Shown: positions 77 to 13,640, counted from the stretch's first letter. The stretch is 13,640 nt of DNA from Calditrichaceae bacterium (GCA_050178385.1 JBFXGD010000089.1:1-13640); one strand, 5' to 3'. The notes: a model not told the origin generated them from the sequence alone. Made by a program: numbers and translations.

Positions 77-1327
77 TTACTGAACAGTACGTACACAACG
101 TACATAATTAAATATCCTGATTGCGTCGCCTTGCGGTCCATGGCCCGTAGGATAATCATCCGGATTACCAACTTTGGGATCGCTGCGCTGGGCACCGGCT
201 CCATGCACATCCTGCCACATTCCATTCATGTAACCCATCGCACGCCCAAAGCTTACATAAACCGCAAAACCGCCGCCCACAGATGACCAGTTGCTGTGCG
301 TGGTGCTTGTCCAATAGAATCCATAGTCAGCCTGCCCGGCTTCATTCGTAATTTCTGTGCAGTTAAAAAGCGGATCGATGGCAGCAGAAGCGTTTGTTCC
401 GGACGAATACGTGTAATCAACTATACTTTGCAGCTCTTTTGCATCCGGCAGCCGCCAATCGGTATAGCCCGCGTATTCAAGATTTTCCGCATAGCTCAAA
501 GCGTCTTCCCAGTTCATGGCCGTTTTGTTGTCATTTTGCATCCACATAAGTCCGGTGGCATCATCACTGATCGTACTGTCGCCGTTATCTCTAAAATTAT
601 TTATGCCGTATCCCGTGTTTCCGCGCGTGTATAAAACAAAGAAGGTTTTTTCACCCGGTCCAAATGGCATTTCCAGACCATACCCTTTGATGCGGCCATC
701 GGCAAAATTTACCCCAAACAATAAATCTCCGCCGGTATATAGGGATGTTGTGGCAAATTGAGAATCAATAATGCGTTCACCGGCTTCCACATCACCATAG
801 GCAAAATCGAAATATTTTGTGTCAATAAAGGGAATAAGCTGGTCCGTTGATACGCCTTCATAGCCGCTTGGGTCAACGCCGCTGAAAACTATAAGTGAGT
901 ACAATTCTTTGATGTCCGGCAACCGCCAGTCATCATAACCGGCCTGATCAAAATCATCGGCCCCGGCAAGCGCTTCCGAATATGTCATTTTATCGTCCGC
1001 ATCAATATCCCCGTCACCATCCATATCCGGACTCTTAGCCCACATCAAACCGGTTACCATGTCCGTAATCGTCCCATCACCGTTATCCACATAGTTTGTC
1101 TCGTTGCGTGAATACATCGCGTCCTGGCCGTAAAACGCGTCACCTTTTGATGGAGTCACAGTTACATTATTATTGTCGTAGAATTTCGTTTGATTGGTAC
1201 TCACAACAGGATAACCACTTATCTCAGAGAGATTATCGTCAGTTAATTCTGTACTTGTTAGCGCATTACTGCATGCTGTAAAAATGGTGAACACCAAAGT
1301 CAGCAAAATAAATATTCTTGATCTCAT
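77..1327 (-). CDS. Lipoprotein with two DUF1566 (Lcl C-terminal-like) domains and an EF-hand-like loop
   Basis: 416 aa ORF with a hydrophobic N-terminus and lipobox FTA-C19. It carries two copies of the DUF1566 pattern (DNGDGTITDMVTGLMW...GYDDWRLPDIKELYSL and DNGDSTISDDATGLMW...GYTDWRLPDAKELQSI) and ends in YVRCVR, typical of the family. A DMDGDGDIDADD loop lies in the first domain. Confidence 0.85.
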   Translation of the reverse strand: MRSRIFILLTLVFTIFTACSNALTSTELTDDNLSEISGYPVVSTNQTKFYDNNNVTVTPSKGDAFYGQDAMYSRNETNYVDNGDGTITDMVTGLMWAKSPDMDGDGDIDADDKMTYSEALAGADDFDQAGYDDWRLPDIKELYSLIVFSGVDPSGYEGVSTDQLIPFIDTKYFDFAYGDVEAGERIIDSQFATTSLYTGGDLLFGVNFADGRIKGYGLEMPFGPGEKTFFVLYTRGNTGYGINNFRDNGDSTISDDATGLMWMQNDNKTAMNWEDALSYAENLEYAGYTDWRLPDAKELQSIVDYTYSSGTNASAAIDPLFNCTEITNEAGQADYGFYWTSTTHSNWSSVGGGFAVYVSFGRAMGYMNGMWQDVHGAGAQRSDPKVGNPDDYPTGHGPQGDAIRIFNYVRCVRTVQ

Positions 1328-1924: not shown

Positions 1925-3694
1925 TCAGGAATTGACAAACGGCTGTTTTTCAAACTTCATAGTTCCGTCTTTTCCTTTATAGATATTTATCCATACACGC
2001 CAGTTCTTATCGTCCATATCGGGATAATCCAGCCTGTAATGGCTACAGCGGCTTTCTTTACGCATAATGGACGCTTTGAGCTTCATCTCGGCGCTGATAA
2101 TCATATTGGCGGTCTCATGCGCAAGTCTCAGCTCGTGCATATCCGTAGCCTTGAGCATAGGCATGTGGTGATCGCGCAACTCTTCAATATTAGCCAAAGC
2201 GGCTTTTAACAGATTCTCCTTTTTTATATAAAGTATAAAGTTGGGAATCATGATGCCCTGCAATGTTTGTGTAACCCAGGCAGGGCTATAACCGGCTTCT
2301 TTTTTTAACGGCGCGAGCATCTCTTCCTGAACTTTATCCCGTTTTGATTTTGAGATCTCAGATAATTCAACATTTTTTGAGTATTCGGCTGCTGCCTCTG
2401 CCGCTACGGCGCCCTGAACCGCGGAACCGGCTAATGATGATCCAATCTGTGTATAGATAGCCCCGGCCATATAAGATCCCAAAGCATCACCGGCTGCATA
2501 CAGACCCGGAATATTGGATTCACATTTTTCATTAATCGGCACAAGTCCTTCGGATTTATGAATGGACATACCGGCAGAAGATCCGCCAACGGCGGAACCG
2601 CCCATTCCCGGAGGTCCGTCGCCTTCGCCATCAGGTTTTTTCCCCCCGGGCCGGGAACCTTCGCCACGAGGTGGTCTGTCACCATCCGGTCTGTCGCCGC
2701 CATCCTGAGGGCCGTCCTGATTAAATTCAGCAGGCCGGTAAGGTCCTCCTTCAATTTGTTGAGATTGCTCCGTTCCCGGAGGCCCCATTTGGACTGAATT
2801 TCCGCTCATATAAGCCATGTAATTCAACTCAACACCCAAATCGTGGCGAATACCTACGCCGGTTGTACCCGGTTTTTGTTCAAACATGCCATGCCAGCCA
2901 TCATAACAGGCCGCGGCATTGGTAGCCTGACCCGGATGACCGTCGTTCCACTCTTTGCCGGTGATTTTGGCGCCAATGTTATAAGCCATAACGGTCCCAT
3001 CATGTGTGAGATCGCAAATGGGAAATCCGTTTGGCTTAAAACCACCGGCTCCTGTACATAGAATAACACTTTTTGCGCGGAAAATATGGACCTTTTCTTC
3101 GTCCAGACTAAATCCTGCCGCTCCGGCAATACGGCCATTTTCCTTTATAAGATGTGTTATGGTGATCCGCTCCATAACCGGTATTTCGCGCTCATCAATG
3201 GGTTTGCGGAAAGAGTTATTGTACAGGTTGGAATCAAAGAAACCCCATTCCCGTAATTCATTTACGCGAGCCAGTGATTGCTCTGCCATTTGCCGGGTAT
3301 AAACCGGATTATTTGTACCAAGGGCAGAGCGGGAGACCGATTCTACAAACTCATCAAGCGTGACATGTTCCTTTGATGAATCAAACGAGAATATGCCTTT
3401 TGCGAATGGTGTTTGTCCGGATGAGCCTAAGCGACCCTTTGAAACGAGTAATGTCTTTGCCCCGGCGTCATGAGCTTTTACTGCTGCGAATAATCCTGCC
3501 ATGCCGCCTCCTATCACCAACACGTCGCTGTCAGTTTCGGTAAACCTCATCTTAGTGATATCCACTACAGGGCGTTCAGAAGACCAGCCGTATTTCAGTC
3601 CCATTGATGCGAGGGCCGCTAAACTTAAAGCACCGCCGGCCATCGTAATAAATTGACGTCTGGAAAGATCTTTGTTTTTACGCGGCTTTTTCAT
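1925..3694 (-). CDS. Tat-signal FAD-dependent oxidoreductase, succinate dehydrogenase/fumarate reductase/APS reductase flavoprotein superfamily (substrate unknown)
   Basis: 589 aa. N-terminal SRRQFI twin-arginine motif plus hydrophobic stretch; Rossmann motif DVLVIGGGMAG; AKSVILCTG; SNIPGLYAAGD; SdhA/AprA-type C-terminal RKESRCSHYRLDYP. RBS AGGGAG. Confidence 0.85.
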   Translation of the reverse strand: MKKPRKNKDLSRRQFITMAGGALSLAALASMGLKYGWSSERPVVDITKMRFTETDSDVLVIGGGMAGLFAAVKAHDAGAKTLLVSKGRLGSSGQTPFAKGIFSFDSSKEHVTLDEFVESVSRSALGTNNPVYTRQMAEQSLARVNELREWGFFDSNLYNNSFRKPIDEREIPVMERITITHLIKENGRIAGAAGFSLDEEKVHIFRAKSVILCTGAGGFKPNGFPICDLTHDGTVMAYNIGAKITGKEWNDGHPGQATNAAACYDGWHGMFEQKPGTTGVGIRHDLGVELNYMAYMSGNSVQMGPPGTEQSQQIEGGPYRPAEFNQDGPQDGGDRPDGDRPPRGEGSRPGGKKPDGEGDGPPGMGGSAVGGSSAGMSIHKSEGLVPINEKCESNIPGLYAAGDALGSYMAGAIYTQIGSSLAGSAVQGAVAAEAAAEYSKNVELSEISKSKRDKVQEEMLAPLKKEAGYSPAWVTQTLQGIMIPNFILYIKKENLLKAALANIEELRDHHMPMLKATDMHELRLAHETANMIISAEMKLKASIMRKESRCSHYRLDYPDMDDKNWRVWINIYKGKDGTMKFEKQPFVNS

Positions 3695-4337
3695 TTTGGT
3701 TTAGCTCCCTTGTTTTTATCTGTTTAAAAAAATATGTTTTTAGAACAAGTATTTCACTGCCCATTGCCAGAGTAATAATATAAATGGACATGGCCAGGTT
3801 GGTGTGACGACCAAGATCTATCATATGCCATGTGGCAATCGCAACAAAAATCATCGCCAAAACACCATGAATATATCTCCAGTTTGTATAGCTCAAAGAC
3901 AGCCTGTCGCGAAAGAATGAAAGAATGCCCAAGGTCAGCATTAAACTCCACGCGACTATCCCAAGTATCACCCCCAAACTGTCAAATGTAGTGATGATAG
4001 TAACAAATGCCTCCAGAGGGGCAACACCGGCTTCAAAAAATCGTGATACGACTAATAGAAACGGGTGAACCAGGAAAACCGCTACGGCCGTATATCCAAT
4101 GAATTTGTGGTATTTAACAATCCTGCTCATCCTGAACAATTTTACAGCTTTCCCGTTGCTTCTTGTGAGAAAAAAAAGTCCAAGCATCATGGGAAAGGCA
4201 AGAATGAACAAAACTGACAAGGATTCTTTCAAGACAGTTTTACGAGCGAAATCTCCCAGGATATATAGCATTAAAGGGAAACCAACAAAAAATCCTGTTA
4301 CAGGAACAAGCCAATCTTTCTTAGTATATTGCATCAT
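3678..4337 (-). CDS. Ferric reductase-like transmembrane (di-heme cytochrome b, MsrQ/YedZ-like) protein
   Basis: 219 aa with about 6 hydrophobic segments and two His-x13-His pairs in TM helices (YHKFIG...LVHP; IHGVL...TWH). WRYIH resembles the family's WxxxH motif. No C-terminal FAD/NAD domain. Overlaps the flavoprotein start by 17 nt. Confidence 0.8.
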   Translation of the reverse strand: MMQYTKKDWLVPVTGFFVGFPLMLYILGDFARKTVLKESLSVLFILAFPMMLGLFFLTRSNGKAVKLFRMSRIVKYHKFIGYTAVAVFLVHPFLLVVSRFFEAGVAPLEAFVTIITTFDSLGVILGIVAWSLMLTLGILSFFRDRLSLSYTNWRYIHGVLAMIFVAIATWHMIDLGRHTNLAMSIYIITLAMGSEILVLKTYFFKQIKTRELNQNEKAA

Positions 4338-4341
4338 TTTT

Positions 4342-4557
4342 TCACCCCCACGAAACGATAACCGGAATCGATTTTTCCGGTGAAATGGTTATAGCATCAA
4401 CCGGACAATACATCCGGCACAGATGACAGATTTGGCAATCGGCAGGATACATGATAACTGCTTTATTTGTATCGGGATCAATACGAATCACATCTGTAGG
4501 ACAGGTCTCTACGCAAATTCCGCAACCGATACACCCGTTTATGCTTTCTATTGACAT
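4342..4557 (-). CDS. 2x[4Fe-4S] dicluster ferredoxin (AprB-like small subunit)
   Basis: 71 aa with two CxxCxxCxxxCP motifs ([24 protein letters not shown]) and no signal peptide. RBS AAGGAAAGGA upstream. Confidence 0.92.
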
Positions 4558-4604
4558 TTATTTTATTCCTTTCCTTTTTACCGGAATAATTTAGTTGCTT
4601 TATA

Positions 4605-4639
4605 ACTTATGACGTTTTTTTGGGAAATCTCTTGTGGTT
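4605..4639 (-). promoter_or_regulatory. Putative ECF sigma-factor promoter, copy 2 (-35 CCACAAG, -10 CGTC)
   Basis: Minus strand reads AACCACAAG-AGATTTCCCAAAAA-AACGTC-AT-AAGT, about 50 nt upstream of the ferredoxin ATG. Conserved blocks and spacing are identical to the copy at 1795-1829. Confidence 0.7.
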
Positions 4640-4655
4640 TGTTTTGAGTTTTATT

Positions 4656-4692
4656 AAAAAAAAGAGCCCTTCATTCTGACAAATGAAGGGCT
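4656..4692 (-). terminator. Rho-independent terminator after cotH-like gene
   Basis: Perfect 11-bp stem AGCCCTTCATT (4665-4675) / AATGAAGGGCT (4682-4692) with a 6-nt loop, followed on the minus strand by C and T8. It lies 32 nt past the stop at 4725. Confidence 0.88.
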
Positions 4693-4724: not shown

Positions 4725-6110
4725 TTAATTCACGTAATTCATTACCGTGTTATAGCGGCTGCTCACATGGGAGATTAAATAATTCACAGCCGTATTAAAA
4801 TCGCTGTCAGATTCTAAGAATGTATAATAAGGCTGTTCGCCATCAGCACCAACTACATAATCGGAAATCAGATTCTGGTAATATTGATATTTGCTTGTCA
4901 TTTTTGCCGGTTCAAACGCGGTCTCAACAACTTGTCTCAGATAGGTTTTGTAGCTGTTTAAATATTGCTCATCATCCAATAAATAGCGTATTAAGGGCCA
5001 GGAACTATTTACTTCATAGCAGGAAACCGAAAGAGCCCCCGTTTGTTTCCCTGTTTGCAAGGCTTCGTTGTTGTCCCAGGGGATCCATGTTAACCAGGCA
5101 TGTTCAGGATCATTATAAAGATAATAATTATGAGGCATCCGGCCATAGGTATCCCAGTTTTGAACCGCAATATTAACAGCAAGCCATCTTAGAAATCCAT
5201 TCACATTAAAAACCGTCTCCAGGGAAGCCCTCCAGGAAGCGGCATTGGTTGTTCTTTCGGATGAATGCAAAACATCAAAAAGCGCTTCAACATCCGACCA
5301 ATCACCGTCTTCATTGGTCTTCTTCTCAAAATAAGATGTACTGAACGTGTTGGCGGCAAAACTGGCGCCGCTGCCTTCAGGTTTATAAACATTACCTTCA
5401 TCCTCAGCAAACTGGTTTTCTATCATGGTGTCATCCACAATTTCGATCATCGTATAAAGGCCAAAATATGTAGGTCCATCGCCATGATCGATATAAATGC
5501 GATAAAAGGCGGTTCGCGGTGCGGGTACACCAAAATCCCTGAAAATTTCCGGAACAACTTTTTCACGGAGTAAGGATTCATCATCGAAATTACTGGAAAG
5601 AGAAAGTTCTTTAAACCCATAAAAGCGCTGATTGGTGATCTGCGGAATCTCATCTTCAAACTGGTCAAAATTAAGCCTTAATGGTAATTTCCATATTCCA
5701 CTTGACCAGGTGGATTGTAAGCTGGAATTTCCTTTAAAACGAACACCAACCTGATACCACTCGATACCATTTGAAAAAACAGAGCAGGGGACATAAACCG
5801 GATTCTCGTTTGAGTCATCCGCGGGCGCAGTGGCACGCGATCCGAAACTACCGTAGTTCTGTTCCATTTCATCCAGCATCACCTGCCAGTTGTCGCTGTC
5901 TATTACAAGATCCAAACGATTTACCCGGTTTTGAGGAAAAACAATATCATAGTCGGGATCGGCGCTTTTCCCGTGTGTGGTTTCAGTCCAGTCAGGAGTC
6001 TCAATTCCCGTATCAAAAATCAGTTGACTTTCGGTGCTGTTTGTACTTGTATCTTCACAACTAATCAAAATTGACAGGAACAGCAGCACAGATATAATTT
6101 TGATATACAT
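4725..6110 (-). CDS. CotH kinase family lipoprotein
   Basis: 461 aa with lipobox LIS-C18. CotH motifs: VGVRFKGNSS, LRLNFD, FYGFKELSL, LLREKV, GVPAPR, YFGLYTMIE, NWDTY...HNYYLY, WIPWDNNEA. RBS AAGGAG. Confidence 0.9.
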   Translation of the reverse strand: MYIKIISVLLFLSILISCEDTSTNSTESQLIFDTGIETPDWTETTHGKSADPDYDIVFPQNRVNRLDLVIDSDNWQVMLDEMEQNYGSFGSRATAPADDSNENPVYVPCSVFSNGIEWYQVGVRFKGNSSLQSTWSSGIWKLPLRLNFDQFEDEIPQITNQRFYGFKELSLSSNFDDESLLREKVVPEIFRDFGVPAPRTAFYRIYIDHGDGPTYFGLYTMIEIVDDTMIENQFAEDEGNVYKPEGSGASFAANTFSTSYFEKKTNEDGDWSDVEALFDVLHSSERTTNAASWRASLETVFNVNGFLRWLAVNIAVQNWDTYGRMPHNYYLYNDPEHAWLTWIPWDNNEALQTGKQTGALSVSCYEVNSSWPLIRYLLDDEQYLNSYKTYLRQVVETAFEPAKMTSKYQYYQNLISDYVVGADGEQPYYTFLESDSDFNTAVNYLISHVSSRYNTVMNYVN

Positions 6111-6138: not shown

Positions 6139-7800
6139 TCAATTTACAATCGTTATTGTGTCGGAAATGATGAGACTTTTGTACAGACTCCCGCCCGCGT
6201 ACGTTCCGTCCTTATATAGCCCGTCAGTAGAAGTTCCGGTGCAACTACCACCTGTGTAAACATTGTACGAAGTTCCTTTGACAAGTTTTGATGATGAAAA
6301 GACAACGGACTGGTATGATTTTGCGGGGCTAAAGGTTAATATCTCTTCACCGCTTTGGGATTCCATGTGTATTAATGTTCCGGCGTCTTTTGTTGAGTTG
6401 AAGTTTACAAGAATACAATATTGTTCTGATGATGTGCACGGAGCTTTTGTCATTGTGAAATAACTACCCGCCGCTACCAGAAATCCACCGTTCATCTCAA
6501 ACGTACCATCATAATCCAACGCGCTGCTTGATGTGTCTGAAGAACCGCTGACGAGTAAGGTCCCATCGGTCATTAATATTGAAGAGTTTGCGTCAATGCC
6601 ATCACCATCCGCGTTTACTACAATATAACCTCCGTTAACATAAATATAGCTGCCGCTCTCCGCTGCCAGGTTAATGCCGTCGTCACTTGAGACAATGTGT
6701 ATCTCACCGCCGTTAACGGTAATATCCCCCTTGACGCTTTCAATACCTTCAAATGACTTTTCAATGTTAATCTCCCCGCCGTTTATGACCAAATCATAAT
6801 CGGCATGAATAGCATCATCATCGCAAGAAATAGTTAGGATACCATCATTGATTGTGATCAGGCCATCGGAATGAATTCCATCATTACCGGAATTTATTGT
6901 GATTGTACCTCCATCAATAGTCACACTTATAGATCCATTGATTCCTTGTCCACCGGATGATATTGAGATTTCCCCGGAACTGATATCCACATCTTTTTGA
7001 GCAGCTATGGCTTCACTGGAGGCGGTTATGTCAATAACACCTTTCTCAATAGTAATGTACCCCATTGAAGCGTCATCGGCATTATCGGATTTCAAACCAA
7101 TACCGGCAGCATCCACAGTGATATTTCCATCTTTCACAATAAGATAATCTTTTCCCCTGATACCATCATCAACCGCATGGACCCGGATATTTCCGCTTGT
7201 AATTATCAATCCGTCCTTACCTGAAATACCGTCATTGTAATTTCCAAAGACCGTTAAGCTGCCATTTCCATAGAAAGTAAGATCAGCTTTACTGAAGACA
7301 GCGGCATTGGGTTCAGCCACATCCGTGTTTGCATAAGTATATGATGACCCGTCCTTTAAATAATTTTCTGAATTATCCGCAAGAACGATCATTACCCTGG
7401 CTGCCTTCTCAACATACACAGGCGCATGTGTCGAGCAGTTGATATCCACGTTATTTAAAATGAGCCGGACAATTTCATTATCATCGGTATCAACTACTAT
7501 CCGGCCATCTTCAAGTGAACCGCTTATATTATATGAACCCGCTGATGTAATTGCTAAGATGCTTCCCTCCGCGATGGCACCGTTTCCATCAACAGTAATG
7601 CTGTTTCCATTTAACATGATTGGAATTTCTTCAGAGCTGTCCCAGATATAATCTCCCGCATCATCATGACTTTTAGCATCATCAACAATTGTTGTTTCGG
7701 TTTCATCTGCAGTATCATCTGCATTTGTAGAATTTTGGCAGGCGATGAATCCTGTCGTTACTAAACTAAATATCAGCAATACATATATTTTGTTATACAT
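6139..7800 (-). CDS. Cthe_2159-family (DUF4353) carbohydrate/metal-binding beta-helix lipoprotein
   Basis: 553 aa with lipobox FIA-C21. N-terminal pattern ITSAGSYNISGSLEDGRIVV...VRLILNNVDI...AAVFSKADLTFYGNGSLTV. Repeated ~22-aa beta-helix rungs (DDGIRGKD, NDGIHSDG, DDAIHADY, DDGINLAA, GDGIDANS) and ALDYDG. RBS GAGG. Confidence 0.85.
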   Translation of the reverse strand: MYNKIYVLLIFSLVTTGFIACQNSTNADDTADETETTIVDDAKSHDDAGDYIWDSSEEIPIMLNGNSITVDGNGAIAEGSILAITSAGSYNISGSLEDGRIVVDTDDNEIVRLILNNVDINCSTHAPVYVEKAARVMIVLADNSENYLKDGSSYTYANTDVAEPNAAVFSKADLTFYGNGSLTVFGNYNDGISGKDGLIITSGNIRVHAVDDGIRGKDYLIVKDGNITVDAAGIGLKSDNADDASMGYITIEKGVIDITASSEAIAAQKDVDISSGEISISSGGQGINGSISVTIDGGTITINSGNDGIHSDGLITINDGILTISCDDDAIHADYDLVINGGEINIEKSFEGIESVKGDITVNGGEIHIVSSDDGINLAAESGSYIYVNGGYIVVNADGDGIDANSSILMTDGTLLVSGSSDTSSSALDYDGTFEMNGGFLVAAGSYFTMTKAPCTSSEQYCILVNFNSTKDAGTLIHMESQSGEEILTFSPAKSYQSVVFSSSKLVKGTSYNVYTGGSCTGTSTDGLYKDGTYAGGSLYKSLIISDTITIVN

Positions 7801-7829: not shown

Positions 7830-8504
7830 CTAAATCTGTTCTTCGTCAAAGAAGAGATTGATATTTTTAACACCATTTGAATTATCCAGGGCGTTTATAA
7901 ATTCCGGGTTTTTATCCTTGTTCTTCAACCTGACATAATAGGATAGCTCCAATATACCCTGATTTTCGATTGTCCGTGTGTTTATCACCTTATGCCATCG
8001 GCAATACCTATCCAGGATCGGTATGTAGGAGAGGGGATCGACGCCATTTGGCTGAAAAGAAAATTGCAGTAAATAATCATTTTGCCGCGCAGCAGTAATA
8101 TTCGATTTTGCCAGTAATAAAATAATTATCCCGACAAAGACTGATCCAAAGATGGCAATTTTATAATATCCCACACCGAATGCCATACCGATCGCCAGCG
8201 CAAAAAATATGAAAACTATATCCTGAGTGTCTTTAACAGCCGTCCTGAAACGAATGATCGACATAGCGCCAACCAGTCCGAACGCGCGGGCAAGATTATT
8301 ACCAATAACCATGATAACGATGGCTGTGATCATTGTAAGAATAATCATCGAATTTACAAAAGCCGCCGAATACCCGGCCCCGCGGTAGGATTTTCGGTAA
8401 ATGTAAGCGATAAAAAGTCCACAACACAAAGCGACGATGATGTTTTTCATTATTTCAAATATGGATACAGGAAACAGATTTAGACTTTGCATTTCATTAA
8501 ACAT
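7830..8504 (-). CDS. DUF4956 family membrane protein
   Basis: About 5 TM segments plus a soluble C-terminal domain, with the family signature GNNLARAFGLVGAMSIIRFRTAVKD. ATG at 8504 is 7 nt after GGAG; the alternative start is GTG at 8507. The start overlaps the 3' end of the VTC gene. Confidence 0.88.
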   Translation of the reverse strand: MFNEMQSLNLFPVSIFEIMKNIIVALCCGLFIAYIYRKSYRGAGYSAAFVNSMIILTMITAIVIMVIGNNLARAFGLVGAMSIIRFRTAVKDTQDIVFIFFALAIGMAFGVGYYKIAIFGSVFVGIIILLLAKSNITAARQNDYLLQFSFQPNGVDPLSYIPILDRYCRWHKVINTRTIENQGILELSYYVRLKNKDKNPEFINALDNSNGVKNINLFFDEEQI

Positions 8505-9276
8505 CACAGCACTCCCTGCTTATGATCATGTTCCGCCTGCTAAAGCGTTGATTTTTAAACTCCGCGTGTGTTTCCAGAGACATGGTGTACTTTGATAATG
8601 CCCGTCGGTTTAATCCATATTTGCTAATAAGCGATATGATCCAGTTGGGCAGGCTTCCAAAAAATTTTACTTCAAGAATAAAGTGGTTGATCAATGCAGA
8701 TTTAACGTTATCTTCTTCATAAAGATGCTTTAGGTCGGGATAAATAACACTGCGCAGGTTTTTATCAAATGTTAAACGCAGAGATGGATCCATTTTTCCC
8801 TGAAAGGCTTCACGATCGTAAATCACCAATACAGCCGGGCGTAAATTTTTCACATAATAATAATAAAGAAATTTCCGCGCGTCTTTTTTCTCCGCGCCAT
8901 TTCCACTAAACGACAGCACAACATCATCTATACGTCTTGAGACTAGTGCTGGGGTAATATTTGCATAATAAAGCGGCGCCCGGCTTTTTGATATACAATT
9001 TGTGTTTTTGTGTTTTATTTCCAGAAAAATTAAGCTTTCTTCTGAACACTCATCATACCCTCTGATGCGGAATTTATTTCTGATTTGTACGCCGTCAATT
9101 TTTTCTTTGTAGCATGTAAACTGCGGCGAGTCATAATAAATGCTTCTAACAGTGTATTGCCCGTCACTCTGTTTTTTTGCAAAATTATCCAACTCCATAT
9201 AAGGACTCAGCTCTGTCCTGAGCTTATCAACAAGGGTGTTAGGGACTAAATATTTATATTCATATCTCGAAGCCAT
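8497..9276 (-). CDS. VTC-domain (polyphosphate polymerase-like, CYTH/TTM superfamily) protein
   Basis: Motifs RYEYKY, YTVRSIYYDS, RNKFRIRGY, FLEIKHK, YDREAF, RLTFD, ILEVKF and SKY are typical of bacterial VTC-domain proteins. Start reassigned from 9336 to the ATG at 9276 (MASRYEYK), which has AGGAAAG upstream and avoids a 52-nt overlap with the upstream gene. Confidence 0.9.
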   Translation of the reverse strand: MASRYEYKYLVPNTLVDKLRTELSPYMELDNFAKKQSDGQYTVRSIYYDSPQFTCYKEKIDGVQIRNKFRIRGYDECSEESLIFLEIKHKNTNCISKSRAPLYYANITPALVSRRIDDVVLSFSGNGAEKKDARKFLYYYYVKNLRPAVLVIYDREAFQGKMDPSLRLTFDKNLRSVIYPDLKHLYEEDNVKSALINHFILEVKFFGSLPNWIISLISKYGLNRRALSKYTMSLETHAEFKNQRFSRRNMIISRECCDV

Positions 9277-9284
9277 AATCTTTC

Positions 9285-10346
9285 CTAATTTAAAATAATC
9301 TGTTTCAGATAAAACGGAATGGACAACGGGCTGCATTTAATTTTGGCCGGCGTAAGCATACCGGAAATAAAGTCATTTGATATTGAATTAACGGTCGCCA
9401 GAACAATAATACACTGCTTCCCGCCTATGAGCTGCATAACCGGTTGAGTCATCTGAACTTCACCGGATAATTGCGATTTAAGGTCAGGTGAATCAAAAAA
9501 AACATTCCCGCCTTCCCGGACAAACGCAGCGTCTTTCAGCGGGACAGGGATACAGGCAACCGCCGAATCAAAATTTGACAAGATCAAAAGGGTATCATTG
9601 GTAAATGACCTTTCAACGCGGCCACTAAATGGCGAAATAATCAGGTTTTGCGAATCCATTTGTTGTTTTAAGAAGAAAATCTCATTTTCAACCGCGTTAA
9701 TTTGTTCTGTCAATTTGTGTATTTCCTCAACTTTCTCACCACTCATGCTCGATTCCAGTTCAGCCTGCCGAACGTTTACGGCTTTAACCAGAGTATTTAA
9801 TTCATCGGCCGCTATCTGGTATTCTTCCCCGGCGATAAGATCTTTATCAAACAATTCCTTAAGCCTCGCGGTAATTTTTTCCTGTTTATCCGATTCCGAT
9901 TGGGCCATGGCCAGTCTTTCTTCCGCCTCCCGCACTTCTGTTATTTTGTTGCCACTCATGCCTGATCGCAGCGATGCTTTCAGAATCTGCAGTTCGCCAT
10001 CCAGTTGAATAAGGTTTTCATGCTTTCTGCTGGAGTAGATAATAGCCAGAGTATCTCCCTTAGCAACAATCTGTCCGTTGGAAAGCTCAGGATTCAGCGT
10101 TAAAACGATTGATTCGCCCCGTTCAAATGAAGTAAGCTGATAGGAATTATTTATTCCGCTGCTAAAATTAATCGTGCTGGTCAAAATCTGCCCGTCATTT
10201 CCGCGGGACAAAATCCATTGTTGAGCGGGCAATATTTTTGCTATACTGTCAATTGTATGCGGCACTTTAATTGGTAAAAAGAAAATGCCCATAGCTGCGA
10301 GAACTATGCCGATGATAATTAGGATACGATGGTTTTTTCCCGACAT
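9285..10346 (-). CDS. Atypical HlyD-like periplasmic adaptor / membrane fusion protein
   Basis: 353 aa with one N-terminal TM helix, a lipoyl-like half-motif (NGQIVAKGDTLA), a long coiled-coil hairpin (RLKELFDKDLIAGEEY), a second half-motif (IISPFSGRV) and a C-terminal beta-barrel-like region ending FISGMLTPAKI. Confidence 0.7.
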   Translation of the reverse strand: MSGKNHRILIIIGIVLAAMGIFFLPIKVPHTIDSIAKILPAQQWILSRGNDGQILTSTINFSSGINNSYQLTSFERGESIVLTLNPELSNGQIVAKGDTLAIIYSSRKHENLIQLDGELQILKASLRSGMSGNKITEVREAEERLAMAQSESDKQEKITARLKELFDKDLIAGEEYQIAADELNTLVKAVNVRQAELESSMSGEKVEEIHKLTEQINAVENEIFFLKQQMDSQNLIISPFSGRVERSFTNDTLLILSNFDSAVACIPVPLKDAAFVREGGNVFFDSPDLKSQLSGEVQMTQPVMQLIGGKQCIIVLATVNSISNDFISGMLTPAKIKCSPLSIPFYLKQIILN

Positions 10347-10384
10347 TATTTGCCCTTTTATTGTAATGATTCTTAATATTAAAT

Positions 10385-11605
10385 TTACTCATGCCTGAGT
10401 GCTTCAATAGGATCCAGTGCCGCTGCTTTACGTGCCGGGTACCAGCCAAAGAACACGCCGATAAACGAACAAAACAAAAATGATAATAGAATGGATTCCA
10501 TCGTAATCAACACCGGCCAGGACATGATATTCTCAACCGCGCTTGAAGCAAGGATACCGCCGGCTACGCCTAAGACACCTCCGGTTACACTCAACAAAAC
10601 AGCTTCAAGAAGGAACTGCATTAATATATCTTTTCCTTTGCCGCCGATGGCCAGTCTTAATCCTATTTCGCGGGTGCGCTCCGTAACGGACACATACATG
10701 ATATTCATAATACCAATCCCGCCCACGACCAAAGATATAGCAGCTATAGAGCCAAGTAAAACCAGCATCATTTCGGAAATTGAGCCAAATGTACTGATCA
10801 GTTCGGCCTGCGTCCGTAATTCAAAATCATTGTCTTCACTGTCCTTTAATTTATGCGCAAGACGCATGGCTTCTTCAATCTGTGTACTTGCCTCGTCAAT
10901 TTGATCTTCGGATACAGCAGACATAACAATTGCGCGCAGATGCGTTTGGCGGATAACTCTTTTCATAACGGTGGTGTACGGCGCGAGTATGATGTCATCC
11001 TGGTCCTGTCCAAAAGTATTTTCACCTTTTTCTTCCAGTACTCCGATCACTTTAAACGGTATCTTTTCAAAGCGGATGGTTTGGCCGACAGGATCAATAT
11101 CGTCGCCAAATATATTCTCAACAACAGTCTGTCCAATCACGACTACTTTTGCGGCGTTTTTTATATCCTGGGATGATAATGAACGGCCGCTGGCAATATC
11201 ATACTTTTTGATATATGTATATTCTTCGTTTCCGCCGTAGATTTGGGTCGGCCAGTTATTCGTTCCAAAGATAACCTGACCGGAACCATCAATTTCCGGG
11301 GATACAGCCGAAATTTTATCACAGTTTTCCCTTATAAAATCAACATCTGCAACTACCAGTGTTTGTGACATCTCCCTGCTGTGTTGGACTCCGCTACTAT
11401 TTCTGCTGGCGGGTTGGATATGAATAAGATTTGTACCCATGGAAGATATTTTTTCCTGGATACTGGCATTGGATCCTTCTCCGATAGCAAGCATGGCGAT
11501 AACCGATGCCACACCAATTATGATTCCCAGCATCGTAAGGAAGGAGCGTATTTTGTTTCTTTTTATTGCAGCAATGGCAATTTTAATTACGTTTAATATT
11601 TTCAT
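10385..11605 (-). CDS. MacB/FtsX-family ABC transporter permease
   Basis: RSFLTMLGIIIGVASVIAM, a large periplasmic domain, SLVVGGIGIMNIMYVSVTERTREIG and FFGWYPARKAAALDPIEALRHE. ATG at 11605 follows GAGAG; the alternative start is TTG at 11611. Confidence 0.95.
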   Translation of the reverse strand: MKILNVIKIAIAAIKRNKIRSFLTMLGIIIGVASVIAMLAIGEGSNASIQEKISSMGTNLIHIQPASRNSSGVQHSREMSQTLVVADVDFIRENCDKISAVSPEIDGSGQVIFGTNNWPTQIYGGNEEYTYIKKYDIASGRSLSSQDIKNAAKVVVIGQTVVENIFGDDIDPVGQTIRFEKIPFKVIGVLEEKGENTFGQDQDDIILAPYTTVMKRVIRQTHLRAIVMSAVSEDQIDEASTQIEEAMRLAHKLKDSEDNDFELRTQAELISTFGSISEMMLVLLGSIAAISLVVGGIGIMNIMYVSVTERTREIGLRLAIGGKGKDILMQFLLEAVLLSVTGGVLGVAGGILASSAVENIMSWPVLITMESILLSFLFCSFIGVFFGWYPARKAAALDPIEALRHE

Positions 11606-11626
11606 TTTCAACTCTCGTTGTACGGG

Positions 11627-12400
11627 TTAGTTTGCATCTATTAATAAATCAAAAACGGCATCTTCTTCTTTTAAGTTTTCAAGTGCCGTTTGGGCTTCCG
11701 TTAGTGTGTTTACCAGAATATCTTTAATTATCCGGCCGTCACGGAAAACTATATTTCTTTTTGTAAAAGCCGCGATATCGGGCTCATGAGTTACAAAGGC
11801 AATGGTTATCCCGTTTTCATTTAACTCCTGGAACAGGGCCATAATCCCGAAAGACGTCCTGGTATCAAGATTACCGGTTGCTTCATCGGCCAGGATCAGT
11901 ACAGGATCGTTTACCAGCGAACGGGCGATGGCCACACGCTGCTGCTGACCGCCGGACATTTGATTGGAAAGATGGTTCATACGGTCTGCTAAACCGACCG
12001 CATCCAATGCATACTCCGCTTTTTCCCGGCGTATTTTAGCGGTAATCTTAGGATTGTACAACAACGGCAGTTCCACATTTTCCAGGGCCGTGGTTCGCGG
12101 TAACAGGTTATAGGACTGAAACACAAAACCCAGTTTCAAATTGCGTACATCAGCCAATTGGTTTTTATTAAGTGATTTAACATTTGTACCATCAAGCCGG
12201 TAGTCGCCTGCTGTTGGTCTGTCCAGACACCCAAGAATATTAAGCAGGGTAGATTTGCCGGATCCACTGGCGCCCATAATGGCCACAAACTCGCCGGCAT
12301 TTATTGTCAGGTCAATACCACGCAGCGCTCTGACTGTTTCAGTCCCCACCCGGTAATCTTTTTGAAGATTTTCTATTTCGATTATTTTATTGTTTTTCAT
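11627..12400 (-). CDS. ABC transporter ATP-binding protein (MacB/LolD subfamily)
   Basis: Walker A GASGSGKS, Q-loop GFVFQSYNL, signature MSGGQQQR, Walker B/D-loop ILADEATGNLD, H-loop VTHE. Confidence 0.95.
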   Translation of the reverse strand: MKNNKIIEIENLQKDYRVGTETVRALRGIDLTINAGEFVAIMGASGSGKSTLLNILGCLDRPTAGDYRLDGTNVKSLNKNQLADVRNLKLGFVFQSYNLLPRTTALENVELPLLYNPKITAKIRREKAEYALDAVGLADRMNHLSNQMSGGQQQRVAIARSLVNDPVLILADEATGNLDTRTSFGIMALFQELNENGITIAFVTHEPDIAAFTKRNIVFRDGRIIKDILVNTLTEAQTALENLKEEDAVFDLLIDAN

Positions 12401-12459
12401 TTTTCAGCAATTCTTATTTTTGTCAGGTTAATGTTTTTGAGTTCATAATTTGTTAAATG

Positions 12460-13640
12460 TTACCTGCCCGGGCGTCCCGGAGCTTCCTGGACAAACGGGC
12501 TTTGTGTTTCTTCGCTCTTTGCAACATTTTTGCTTGTGTTACTCCCCGCTTCCATAGAAGTAATAACCTGGTCACCCTCATTCAATCCCGAAATTATTTC
12601 AACGCTTACTCCATCTGTTACACCGGTTTCTACTGCTACAGGCTTGATAATTGATCCGTTTTTTACCCAAACGCGTTTGATATTATCAGGGATCTCATCT
12701 TTTTGAACTTCAGATTGTTCTGTCGTTTTTTGTGAACCGGAAGCCGGTCTTTGTGGACGTTCACTCTCCGGAAGGCTATTGAAATAGTCAGTCATTTGCT
12801 CTCGATCCGGTGTAAAACGTATGGCTTTTCCTGCTACAACCAGAGCATCTGTTACTTCTTCAACATATACAGTGATGCTGGCCGTCATACCCGGTTTTAA
12901 TTTTAATTCAGTGTTCTGCGCTGAAACAATCACGGTATATGTAATAACATTCGATGTTTCAGTTGGTTGTAACCGTACTTCTGTGATCGTGCCGGTAAAA
13001 GTTACCTCGGGAAAAGCGTCTACGGTAAATTCCACACGCTGTCCTTCTTTGACCATGCCAATATCTGCTTCGTCCACATTTGCTTCAACCTGCATTTCCG
13101 AAAGATCATTAGTGATTGTAAACAGTTCAGGTGTGCTCATACTGGCTGTAACGGTTTGCCCTTCTTCAACCGCGCGGTTAAGAACAACCCCGTCAATCGG
13201 AGAATAAATATTGGCATAAGCCAAATTTAGTTGTGCTTTATTTAAATTGGCATTGGCCGACTTCAAACCTGCCTGGCTTTTTTTATAATTATATTTGGCC
13301 AGGTCATAATCGCTTTCTGACAGCAAATCCTTTTTAAAAAACTCTTCATTTCGTTCAAAGTTGGCTTTTTGATATTCAAGTTCTGCCTGCGCGTCAAACA
13401 AATCTGCTTCGGCATTTTCCAAACTTGACTGCAAAGTCGATTTGTCGAGTTCAGCAATCAATTGCCCCTTTTCTACTTTCGAATTAAAGTCCACAAACAA
13501 CTTTTCGATCACGCCCGATACCTGGGTTCCAACAATAACAGTATTCGTTGCTTCCAATGTCCCGGTGGCGGTAATTGTGTTGCTTACCGTGCCTTTTTCT
13601 ACGATTGTTGTCTCGAAAACGTAATCGTTGTCATTGATTC
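12460..13640 (-). CDS. MacA-like efflux periplasmic adaptor subunit (5' end beyond the window)
   Basis: The frame stays open from 13557 to the window edge (...YVFETTIVEKGTVSNTITATGTLEATNTVIVGTQVSG). Motifs VEKGQLIAELD, IYSPIDGVV, VDEADIG and LKPGMTA are typical of MacA/HlyD adaptors. Confidence 0.92.
   Translation of the reverse strand, partial: INDNDYVFETTIVEKGTVSNTITATGTLEATNTVIVGTQVSGVIEKLFVDFNSKVEKGQLIAELDKSTLQSSLENAEADLFDAQAELEYQKANFERNEEFFKKDLLSESDYDLAKYNYKKSQAGLKSANANLNKAQLNLAYANIYSPIDGVVLNRAVEEGQTVTASMSTPELFTITNDLSEMQVEANVDEADIGMVKEGQRVEFTVDAFPEVTFTGTITEVRLQPTETSNVITYTVIVSAQNTELKLKPGMTASITVYVEEVTDALVVAGKAIRFTPDREQMTDYFNSLPESERPQRPASGSQKTTEQSEVQKDEIPDNIKRVWVKNGSIIKPVAVETGVTDGVSVEIISGLNEGDQVITSMEAGSNTSKNVAKSEETQSPFVQEAPGRPGR

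Follow-up and report, generated by a model that had tools for sequence, protein, structure and literature searches.

The trio and its protein components

We analyzed a stretch of 13,640 nucleotides (nt) from a Calditrichaceae bacterium (GCA_050178385.1 JBFXGD010000089.1:1-13640; hereafter the window). Three genes on its minus strand (1925-4557) encode a ferredoxin, a membrane protein and a flavoprotein that probably make up one membrane-bound, periplasm-facing oxidoreductase, with electrons moving outward to an exported flavoprotein. From 5' to 3', the genes specify a 2x[4Fe-4S] ferredoxin of 71 amino acids (aa) (4342-4557; open reading frame (ORF) call and Pfam), a 219-aa membrane protein with a ferric reductase domain (FRD; 3678-4337; ORF call and PF01794), and a 589-aa flavin adenine dinucleotide (FAD) flavoprotein of the SdhA/AprA superfamily, which is the presumed catalytic subunit (1925-3694; ORF call, PF00890 and PF02910). 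As read from the sequence, a gap of 4 nt (4338-4341) separates the ferredoxin and FRD genes, while the FRD and flavoprotein genes share an overlap of 17 nt (3678-3694). The flavoprotein ATG is preceded, at a distance of about 10 nt, by an AGGGAG motif. Two terminator-like hairpins were found on the minus strand, one followed by a T-run on the 3' side of the flavoprotein gene (1869-1899; a 14-pair stem, then TTTTATCCAT) and one on the 3' side of the upstream CotH gene (4665-4692; a 12-pair stem, then CTTTTTTTTA), which forms the 5' boundary of the trio. Since the genes are tightly packed and flanked by these hairpins, they plausibly form a single transcription unit. The gap, the overlap and the hairpin beyond the flavoprotein gene were all described in an initial annotation made from the sequence alone, and all were seen again. 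The promoter-like motif that it also listed was not reproduced, as a sigma-70 consensus scan of 4558-4664, upstream of the ferredoxin gene, returned no site, although such a scan is blind to other promoter types. A scan of the window against Rfam gave no match.

The flavoprotein matched the Pfam families PF00890 (FAD_binding_2; 1.7e-22) and PF02910 (Succ_DH_flav_C; 9.6e-15). Its AlphaFold2 model (predicted local distance difference test (pLDDT) 85.2, predicted template modeling score 0.86) resembled the alpha subunit of 3'-phosphoadenosine 5'-phosphosulfate (PAPS) reductase, FrdA and AprA about equally in Foldseek, at 15-20% identity. The top match was the PAPS reductase alpha subunit 8a8o_A (1.9e-27, template modeling (TM) scores 0.67/0.71, 19% identity), the TM score to FrdA and SdhA was about 0.67, and identity to any solved structure was at most 20%. 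A profile of the family placed 8a8o_A first (2.1e-88), ahead of Mycobacterium smegmatis SdhA (2e-82) and AprA (5.8e-76). These matches uphold the placement of the flavoprotein in the SdhA/AprA superfamily. On the other hand, every curated NCBIfam cut-off was missed widely. The best-scoring model was PRK08275 (168.2 bits against a cut-off of 587), and the flavoprotein likewise fell short of sdhA_frdA_Gneg (120.5 against 567.3), fum_red_Fp (82.5 against 932.7), MFR_Fp_SdhA (54.6 against 1100), the aprA model TIGR02061 (84.4 against 641.75), PRK06854 (119.5 against 557), and the nadB and TfrA models. None of 18 scanned representatives of the family reached a curated NCBIfam cut-off either. A scan of 1.84 billion cluster representatives yielded 343 relatives at E<=1e-30; names from an ESM Atlas search were all generic ('FAD-binding protein' and the like), and JGI and NCBI names of relatives include 'succinate dehydrogenase/fumarate reductase flavoprotein subunit'.

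The predicted active site was compared with those of known enzymes through HMMER alignments. In the alignment to M. smegmatis SdhA, Gln94 falls on the His that carries covalent FAD in succinate dehydrogenase (Sdh) and fumarate reductase (Frd), and Tyr414 falls on the Arg of the G-x-N-R-L-G substrate loop; we take these two positions to be the 8-alpha-histidyl FAD His and the substrate-binding Arg of those enzymes. Both Gln94 and Tyr414 are invariant in an alignment of 17 flavoprotein sequences, and two histidines are kept, H253 (in an 'HPT' motif) and H379 (in an H-K-S-E-G motif, roughly at AprA His398). The residues that bind adenosine 5'-phosphosulfate (APS) in Archaeoglobus fulgidus AprA are presumably Asn74, Trp234, Arg265 and His398 (numbering checked in the alignment). 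In the corresponding, poorly aligned region Trp234 is replaced by Phe224 and His398 corresponds approximately to His379, and no residue matches Arg265 or Asn74. Judged from the profile scores and from Gln94 and Tyr414, the flavoprotein is most probably neither a fumarate reductase nor an APS reductase, and it falls in no characterized family. It also carries an insertion rich in Gly, Pro, Asp and Arg at about residues 306-366 (2597-2779, minus strand), which is predicted to be disordered on the basis of pLDDT and alignment; pLDDT is below 50 at residues 306-313 and 328-366, and the length of the insertion differs among orthologues. The G+C content of the flavoprotein gene region (2001-3500) is 0.50, compared with 0.38-0.46 elsewhere in the window. 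This elevated value derives partly from the Gly/Pro-rich insertion, and acquisition of the gene by transfer could also have contributed.

PF01794 (Ferric_reduct) is the sole Pfam domain of the FRD protein (8.2e-12; 45.7 bits, cut-off 28); no NCBIfam model matched it at E<=10, and a sequence search against PDB returned no match. Its AlphaFold2 model (pLDDT 89.3) has six long helices, and the best PDB fold matches were the transmembrane domain of Streptococcus pneumoniae NOX, which ranked first, and STEAP4, STEAP1, STEAP2 and NOX5 (E 3.4e-3 to 0.35, TMq 0.39-0.60). The two His-x13-His pairs noticed in the initial annotation are H77/H91 and H157/H171, and all four residues are invariant in the 74 aligned homologues (74/74). 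The loops on the N-terminal side hold approximately 16 Lys and Arg residues, against 5 on the opposite side (counted from the sequence), so that a topology with the N-terminus inside is favored, with H77 and H157 near the cytoplasm and H91 and H171 near the periplasm. Most of the other invariant residues (E102, G104, P107, G176, R177 and H178) fall in predicted periplasmic loops. The chain ends at residue 219 and lacks a dehydrogenase domain. The homologues found are 158-273 aa long, longer forms not having been searched for with the FRD protein as query, and are named 'predicted ferric reductase' or 'ferric reductase-like' in their source databases.

According to passages of PMC12525009, FRD domains generally hold two hemes through two bis-His motifs, and MsrQ and the STEAPs form a special group with the outer heme only (MsrQ His91/His164) plus a flavin. 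The same passages state that Escherichia coli MsrQ has Arg77 at the position of a NOX heme His, that its flavin is flavin mononucleotide (FMN), and that its electron donor is a cytosolic NADH oxidoreductase and not quinol. Because His occupies all four positions in the FRD protein, its predicted heme sites are NOX-type and not MsrQ-type, and on this sequence evidence it is MsrQ-like only in being a stand-alone FRD with a periplasmic partner. Thus, of the 'MsrQ-like di-heme' protein initially proposed, the four His and the stand-alone PF01794 architecture hold, but the comparison fails at the predicted cofactors, MsrQ being a one-heme protein with FMN and Arg77, and no NCBIfam model supports it.

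The ferredoxin matched Fer4 (6.9e-11) and Fer4_7 (1.2e-10) in Pfam and carries two CxxCxxCxxxCP motifs, whose eight Cys are all invariant in 75 of 75 aligned homologues, as expected for the 2x[4Fe-4S] protein first described. Orthologues across phyla are 73-94% identical, and a conserved C-terminal tail ends in SWG. The label 'AprB-like' fits insofar as the protein shares the generic dicluster arrangement of two [4Fe-4S] sites, but not at the level of family, since the aprB model TIGR02060 gave 28.2 bits against a cut-off of 135.65. The first cluster Cys is residue 9, which leaves no room for a signal peptide.

Predicted export and pairing, and conservation across phyla

The flavoprotein, on the other hand, opens with the core of a predicted twin-arginine translocation (Tat) signal at residues 10-30 (3605-3667, minus strand), recognized by TIGR01409 and by motif. 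It comprises SRRQFI at residues 11-16, the motif to which the initial annotation had drawn attention, and a hydrophobic stretch. When the 50 N-terminal residues were scanned alone, the NCBIfam model TIGR01409 (TAT_signal_seq) was passed with 18.2 bits against a cut-off of 16.7. Of the 76 complete ORFs of flavoprotein orthologues, 74 have an [ST]RRx[FLIMV] motif, and both misses are truncated ORFs. Relatives of 38-50% identity (P0231, P0232 and P0235-P0244) likewise bear a Tat signal.

When the ferredoxin and residues 40-589 of the flavoprotein were co-folded as two chains, the ipSAE was 0.87 (0.85, 0.87 and 0.88 in three runs), and none of three controls exceeded 0.00. Contacts agreed to 72% or better, and the partner pLDDT was 81 or higher. 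Of 157 solved complexes, 116 reach the mark applied here, as do 2 of 215 mismatched pairs, counts that hold only roughly with self-made alignments. The predicted contacts involve residues 86-97 and 220-228 (both in loops next to the FAD-site loop), 261-263 and 520-524 on the flavoprotein side, and residues 17-22 and 36-50 on the ferredoxin side, around the cluster of C19, C41, C44 and C47. Since the modeled interface surrounds this cluster, the other one would face away from the flavoprotein and be available to a membrane partner. A ferredoxin without a signal that docks in the model on a flavoprotein with a Tat signal is consistent with the piggyback export suggested in the initial annotation.

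To assess the distribution of the trio, 185,579 species genomes were subjected to a pattern search. A total of 449 stretches matched, of which 360 encode a relative, and the best 80 of these 360 were kept as loci. Flavoprotein identity over the 80 kept loci ranges from 64 to 94%. A word-index search scored 8000 candidates and recovered 1552 relatives, of which the 120 listed are 67-100% identical and carry generic names only. Local phmmer searches over the 80 loci detected the flavoprotein in 76, the ferredoxin in 74 and the FRD protein in 73. Synteny was counted at the 75 loci with at least 900 nt upstream, leaving out the five with less. The order ferredoxin, FRD protein, flavoprotein recurs on the same strand in 70 of these 75 loci, which represent at least nine phyla, so the grouping is far beyond chance, and the three genes that the initial annotation treated as one module are indeed conserved together. 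Among the exceptions, four loci (L027, L033, L061 and L072) have the ferredoxin gene directly 5' of a flavoprotein with an RR leader and no FRD gene, and one locus with a broken flavoprotein ORF (L030) has no detectable ferredoxin ORF.

Carriers include members of Calditrichota, Bacteroidota (Bacteroidales and Flavobacteriaceae), Thermodesulfobacteriota, Campylobacterota, Planctomycetota, Cloacimonadota, Ignavibacteriota, Bdellovibrionota and Pseudomonadota, and are mostly marine and sediment bacteria. Cultured carriers include Paracoccus seriniphilus DSM 14827, Labilibaculum filiforme, Lutibacter spp. and Desulfogranum marinum. A quick tree was built from 72 flavoproteins, leaving out four loci without a complete ORF as well as ORFs shorter than 560 aa or without the FAD motif. 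The flavoprotein of the window groups with Calditrichota in this tree (support of 98 in the Shimodaira-Hasegawa-like approximate likelihood ratio test, SH-aLRT), which clusters mostly by phylum with some mixing, e.g., an Ignavibacteriota sequence within a Bacteroidota clade. The tree serves here for this placement and for the mixing alone, and no transfer events are claimed from it. Two copies of the flavoprotein locus were observed in one strain (L031 and L064) and in each of two metagenome-assembled genomes (MAGs; L025 and L026, L013 and L034). Duplicate loci in some Desulfobacterota genomes and MAGs suggest paralogous systems, possibly with different substrates.

Neighboring genes and variant clusters

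All annotated neighbors of the trio in the window are encoded on the minus strand. Beyond the flavoprotein gene lie a secreted LTXXQ-like (Spy/CpxP-type) small protein that may be an accessory (1358-1753; Pfam LTXXQ 2.6e-4, below cut-off) and a lipoprotein with two Lcl_C (DUF1566) domains (77-1327; Pfam). Upstream of the trio, Pfam identified a CotH kinase-like gene (4725-6110), a Cthe_2159 gene (6139-7800), a DUF4956/MgtC-like gene (7830-8507) and a VTC-domain gene (8497-9336), a run for which a literature search provided no explanation. A MacB-type efflux system occupies 9285-13638 and consists of an HlyD-family adaptor-like protein (9285-10346; weak matches), a MacB_PCD/FtsX permease (10385-11611; Pfam/NCBIfam), an ABC ATPase (11627-12400; Pfam/NCBIfam) and a second HlyD-family adaptor that runs off the end of the window (12460-13557; strong RND_mfp match). 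The ORFs at 8497-9336 and 9285-10346 share an overlap of 52 nt.

Several of these families recur near the trio in other genomes. Across the 80 loci, the most frequent neighbors were LTXXQ-like secreted proteins (26 loci), Lcl_C (DUF1566) lipoproteins, which at some loci form arrays of 3-5 (21), a family of small secreted proteins with two Cys (20) and CotH (16), followed by OmpR-type regulators and DUF4956 (12 each), LytTR regulators, His_kinase sensors and VTC (11 each), EF-hand proteins (10) and HAMP kinases (9). The regulators and kinases form two-component pairs near the trio (OmpR with HAMP kinase, or LytTR with His_kinase), in clusters covering 9-12 loci each. Tandem Lcl_C paralogues (3-5) were found just 5' of the ferredoxin gene in several Bacteroidales/Lentimicrobiaceae loci (L023, L024, L032 and L080). 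Members of the two-Cys family are about 85-125 aa long and match no Pfam family. Their two conserved Cys come after a Pro-rich motif, and some members also have a lipobox-like Cys. They occur in loci L006, L019, L027, L033, L051, L054 and others, and at 3272-3553 of L081, mostly in Thermodesulfobacteriota and delta-proteobacterial MAGs but also beside the Paracoccus plasmid trio; they may act as accessory factors, as substrates or as ligands of a sensor. The recurrence of two-component systems and of secreted LTXXQ-like and small Cys proteins in these gene neighborhoods suggests an inducible function related to the cell envelope, the one hint here toward the envelope repair or detoxification that the initial annotation had considered.

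Annotated plasmid records lend independent support to export and pairing. Plasmid p599725 of Paracoccus seriniphilus carries a full trio (locus tags JHW44_RS16195-16205), with a flavoprotein 64.5% identical to that of the window, adjoining a divergent upstream OmpR-type regulator and HAMP histidine kinase. In plasmid pILYOP01 of Ilyobacter polytropus (L082, 1428-9723), an upstream NapH-like membrane protein with Fer4_5 and FMN_bind domains takes the place of the FRD protein. The cluster further includes a 132-aa lipoprotein, a co-linear 71-aa ferredoxin (45% identical) and, after the ferredoxin, three flavoprotein paralogues of a 47%-identical class, only the third of which has an RR leader; tatA-tatC-tatA follow directly. 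This arrangement suggests a multi-flavoprotein complex that would be exported on a single signal by a dedicated Tat system. The Ilyobacter lipoprotein is only weakly similar to the LTXXQ-like protein of the window (pairwise E 0.001), and homology is not claimed. A 636-nt metagenomic contig (P0381) encodes a 134-aa ferredoxin homologue, 61% identical, with an N-terminal extension that holds an RRREF-type motif and a hydrophobic stretch, apparently a Tat-type leader of its own. A search for gene fusions with the ferredoxin as query, restricted to longer homologues, provided no Rosetta-stone evidence from its candidates P0379, P0380 and P0383. The Sulfitobacter sequence P0379 is an apparent read-through of an upstream ORF, itself without a Pfam domain, into the ferredoxin gene, P0380 is an apparent frameshift artefact, and P0383 is a different, GltD-like enzyme.

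Proposed mechanism, alternatives and known systems

A working model of the probable oxidoreductase can be outlined. The flavoprotein would fold and take up FAD in the cytoplasm, where the ferredoxin would bind it at the site used by SdhB/AprB-type subunits. The pair would then leave together through Tat on the signal of the flavoprotein and dock from the periplasmic side on the FRD protein, whose two bis-His hemes, one near each face of the membrane, would pass electrons outward from a donor on the cytoplasmic side. This donor could be quinol or a cytosolic reductase. Since MsrQ is fed by a cytosolic oxidoreductase, the quinone that headed the chain in the initial annotation is retained as one option. 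The path would lead from the inner heme b to the outer heme b, the distal [4Fe-4S] cluster, the proximal [4Fe-4S] cluster, FAD and finally a periplasmic substrate, which would be reduced. Expression may be induced by an extracytoplasmic signal, as the two-component systems and the LTXXQ-like and small Cys proteins nearby suggest.

Several observations weigh against this model. The FRD anchor is not obligatory, its gene being absent from 4 of 75 loci. The same 50 N-terminal residues that passed TIGR01409 missed the Pfam TAT_signal model (13.7 against 22.7 bits), and the success of the co-fold may reflect likeness to the solved complexes of AprAB and of PAPS reductase alpha and beta. The equivalences of Q94, Y414, H253 and H379 come from HMMER profile alignments and not from superposition of ligands, and an outward direction of electron flow is drawn by analogy from the behavior of other FRD proteins.

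That direction is the point on which the closest rival differs. The same complex might run in reverse, with the flavoprotein oxidizing a periplasmic substrate, as succinate dehydrogenase and L-aspartate oxidase oxidize theirs, and electrons passing to the ferredoxin, the hemes and the quinone pool. The SdhA/NadB superfamily does hold dehydrogenases and oxidases (as seen in the NCBIfam matches to sdhA and nadB models), and the trio is present in aerobic Flavobacteriaceae (Lutibacter, Maribacter and Winogradskyella). Nevertheless, the potentials of NOX-type hemes and of two [4Fe-4S] clusters are usually low, and the closest solved relatives by profile and fold are PAPS and APS reductases. NOX, STEAP and MsrQ moreover move electrons from the cytoplasmic side outward (passages of PMC12525009), and we therefore consider reversed flow unlikely. 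Another arrangement would keep the ferredoxin in the cytoplasm as donor to the inner FRD heme, with the flavoprotein alone exported and fed by the outer heme. The lack of a signal peptide on the ferredoxin, the gene order and the need of an FRD protein without a dehydrogenase domain for a donor on the cytoplasmic side would all fit such a scheme. We judge it quite unlikely, however, because the co-fold docks the ferredoxin at FAD-proximal loops of the flavoprotein (0.87 against 0.00), four loci keep ferredoxin and flavoprotein without an FRD gene, the homologue P0381 has its own RR-type leader, the Ilyobacter cluster retains the ferredoxin despite a different membrane partner, and the residues that the FRD protein conserves apart from its heme ligands are found mostly in predicted periplasmic loops.

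The remaining alternatives concern the reaction itself. Reduction of iron or another metal in the periplasm, for iron uptake or for detoxification of metals or metalloids, would suit the 'predicted ferric reductase' and 'ferric reductase-like' labels, the MacB-type ABC and HlyD proteins of the window, and the LTXXQ-like and EF-hand proteins and two-component systems that recur nearby. It would also suit a putative RND-type pump (ORFs of 1042 and 1050 aa) with putative adaptor and outer-membrane components that follows the two-gene variants L061 and L072. Yet the labels are automatic domain names, no iron transporter (e.g., VIT1) is among the recurrent neighbors, and metal reduction by an FRD heme would not call for a flavoprotein of the SdhA/AprA type, whose FAD site is buried; this function is thus very unlikely. 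It is more improbable still that the trio encodes a conventional succinate dehydrogenase/fumarate reductase or APS reductase. Some database names read succinate dehydrogenase/fumarate reductase and the fold matches FrdA, SdhA and AprA, but the equivalog cut-offs were all missed widely (sdhA_frdA 120.5/567.3, aprA 84.4/641.75, MFR_Fp_SdhA 54.6/1100), Gln stands at the position of the covalent His and Tyr at that of the substrate Arg, a 71-aa dicluster ferredoxin replaces an SdhB-type subunit, and the flavoprotein carries a Tat signal.

Periplasm-facing reductases determine which compounds are respired, detoxified or repaired outside the cytoplasm, and the trio is best regarded as a real, widespread and conserved variant of such membrane-bound complexes. 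Its parts are each known, i.e., the FRD heme wire, the dicluster ferredoxin and the SdhA/AprA-type flavoprotein with a Tat signal. No description of their combination was found in the full-text literature searched, whose coverage lacked most subscription journals. The predicted active site of the flavoprotein fits neither fumarate nor APS chemistry. Putting these strands together, we tentatively propose an undescribed class of extracytoplasmic reductases, in which a NOX-type two-heme wire devoid of the usual NAD(P)H domain would drive an AprAB-like FAD/[4Fe-4S] enzyme that is exported through Tat and has a new type of active site. This class would have spread through marine and sediment phyla, would serve envelope stress or repair under two-component induction, and would act on a substrate class new to the superfamily. 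If characterized, the system would provide both a new substrate class for a well-studied superfamily and an example of a NOX-type heme domain that works for a protein partner in bacteria. The existence of cultured carriers makes the question directly testable.

Among known systems, the pairing of subunits is closest to that of AprAB (1jnr/2fja) and the PAPS reductase of Methanothermococcus thermolithotrophicus (8a8o), which likewise join an FAD subunit to a dicluster partner. AprAB is cytoplasmic. In the passages of PMC10322725 concerned, APS reductase and the M. thermolithotrophicus enzyme both join an FAD-containing alpha subunit of the fumarate reductase family to a small beta subunit whose eight Cys hold two [4Fe-4S] clusters. 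The ferredoxin of the window aligns co-linearly with 8a8o_C (6.6e-9), at 71 aa against 104 aa, and its predicted dock at the FAD-proximal loops of the flavoprotein, seen in the co-fold, extends the likeness to AprAB. The trio differs in missing the aprA and aprB models and in having a Tat-type signal and a membrane heme partner. A precedent for an exported flavoprotein of the complex II type, missed in the initial annotation, is MfrABE, the methylmenaquinol:fumarate reductase of Campylobacter and Wolinella. Passages of PMC4148689 describe Campylobacter MfrA as a periplasm-facing SdhA-family flavoprotein exported through Tat on its own twin-arginine signal. MfrABE reduces fumarate, whereas the flavoprotein of the window has Tyr at the fumarate-binding Arg and scored 54.6 against 1100 bits with MFR_Fp_SdhA. 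Mfr also has an iron-sulfur subunit and a membrane anchor of complex II types where the trio has a 71-aa ferredoxin and an FRD protein. The SdhA/FrdA subunits of complex II share the FAD_binding_2 and Succ_DH_flav_C architecture, but their SdhB-type partner with 2Fe-2S, 4Fe-4S and 3Fe-4S clusters is not matched by the 71-aa ferredoxin.

Other systems resemble the trio on the membrane side. In MsrPQ (YedYZ), as proposed here, a stand-alone PF01794 protein passes electrons outward to a periplasmic enzyme of the Tat type. The two differ in their cofactors and partners, MsrQ with one heme and FMN serving the molybdoenzyme MsrP, and the FRD protein with four His accompanying an FAD/FeS pair. No molybdopterin-enzyme domain was detected in Pfam and NCBIfam scans of the 13 window proteins, or among the recurrent neighbors. 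E. coli msrPQ adjoins the divergently encoded two-component system hprRS, a layout that resembles that of the two-component systems and trios in the Paracoccus and Desulfobacterota loci. S. pneumoniae NOX (8qt6), the best fold match of the FRD protein (3.4e-3, TMq 0.59), shares its six helices and the two bis-His sites on helices 3 and 5. NOX and FRE proteins differ in their fused FAD/NAD(P)H dehydrogenase domain and in using O2 or Fe(III) as acceptor, for which the trio would substitute a protein partner. As in hitchhiker-type Tat substrates, the twin-arginine motif and hydrophobic region are predicted on the flavoprotein and none on the ferredoxin. Finally, the flavinylation-associated clusters of Meheust et al. 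(2021) combine, in passages of PMC8238504, a NapH-like or MsrQ-like membrane conduit with interchangeable extracytosolic redox enzymes. These clusters are defined there by ApbE/FMN_bind genes, neither of which belongs to the trio of the window, and the passages contain no description of the trio. They nevertheless follow the same modular logic as the trio, and the Fer4_5 and FMN_bind protein of Ilyobacter is of their kind.

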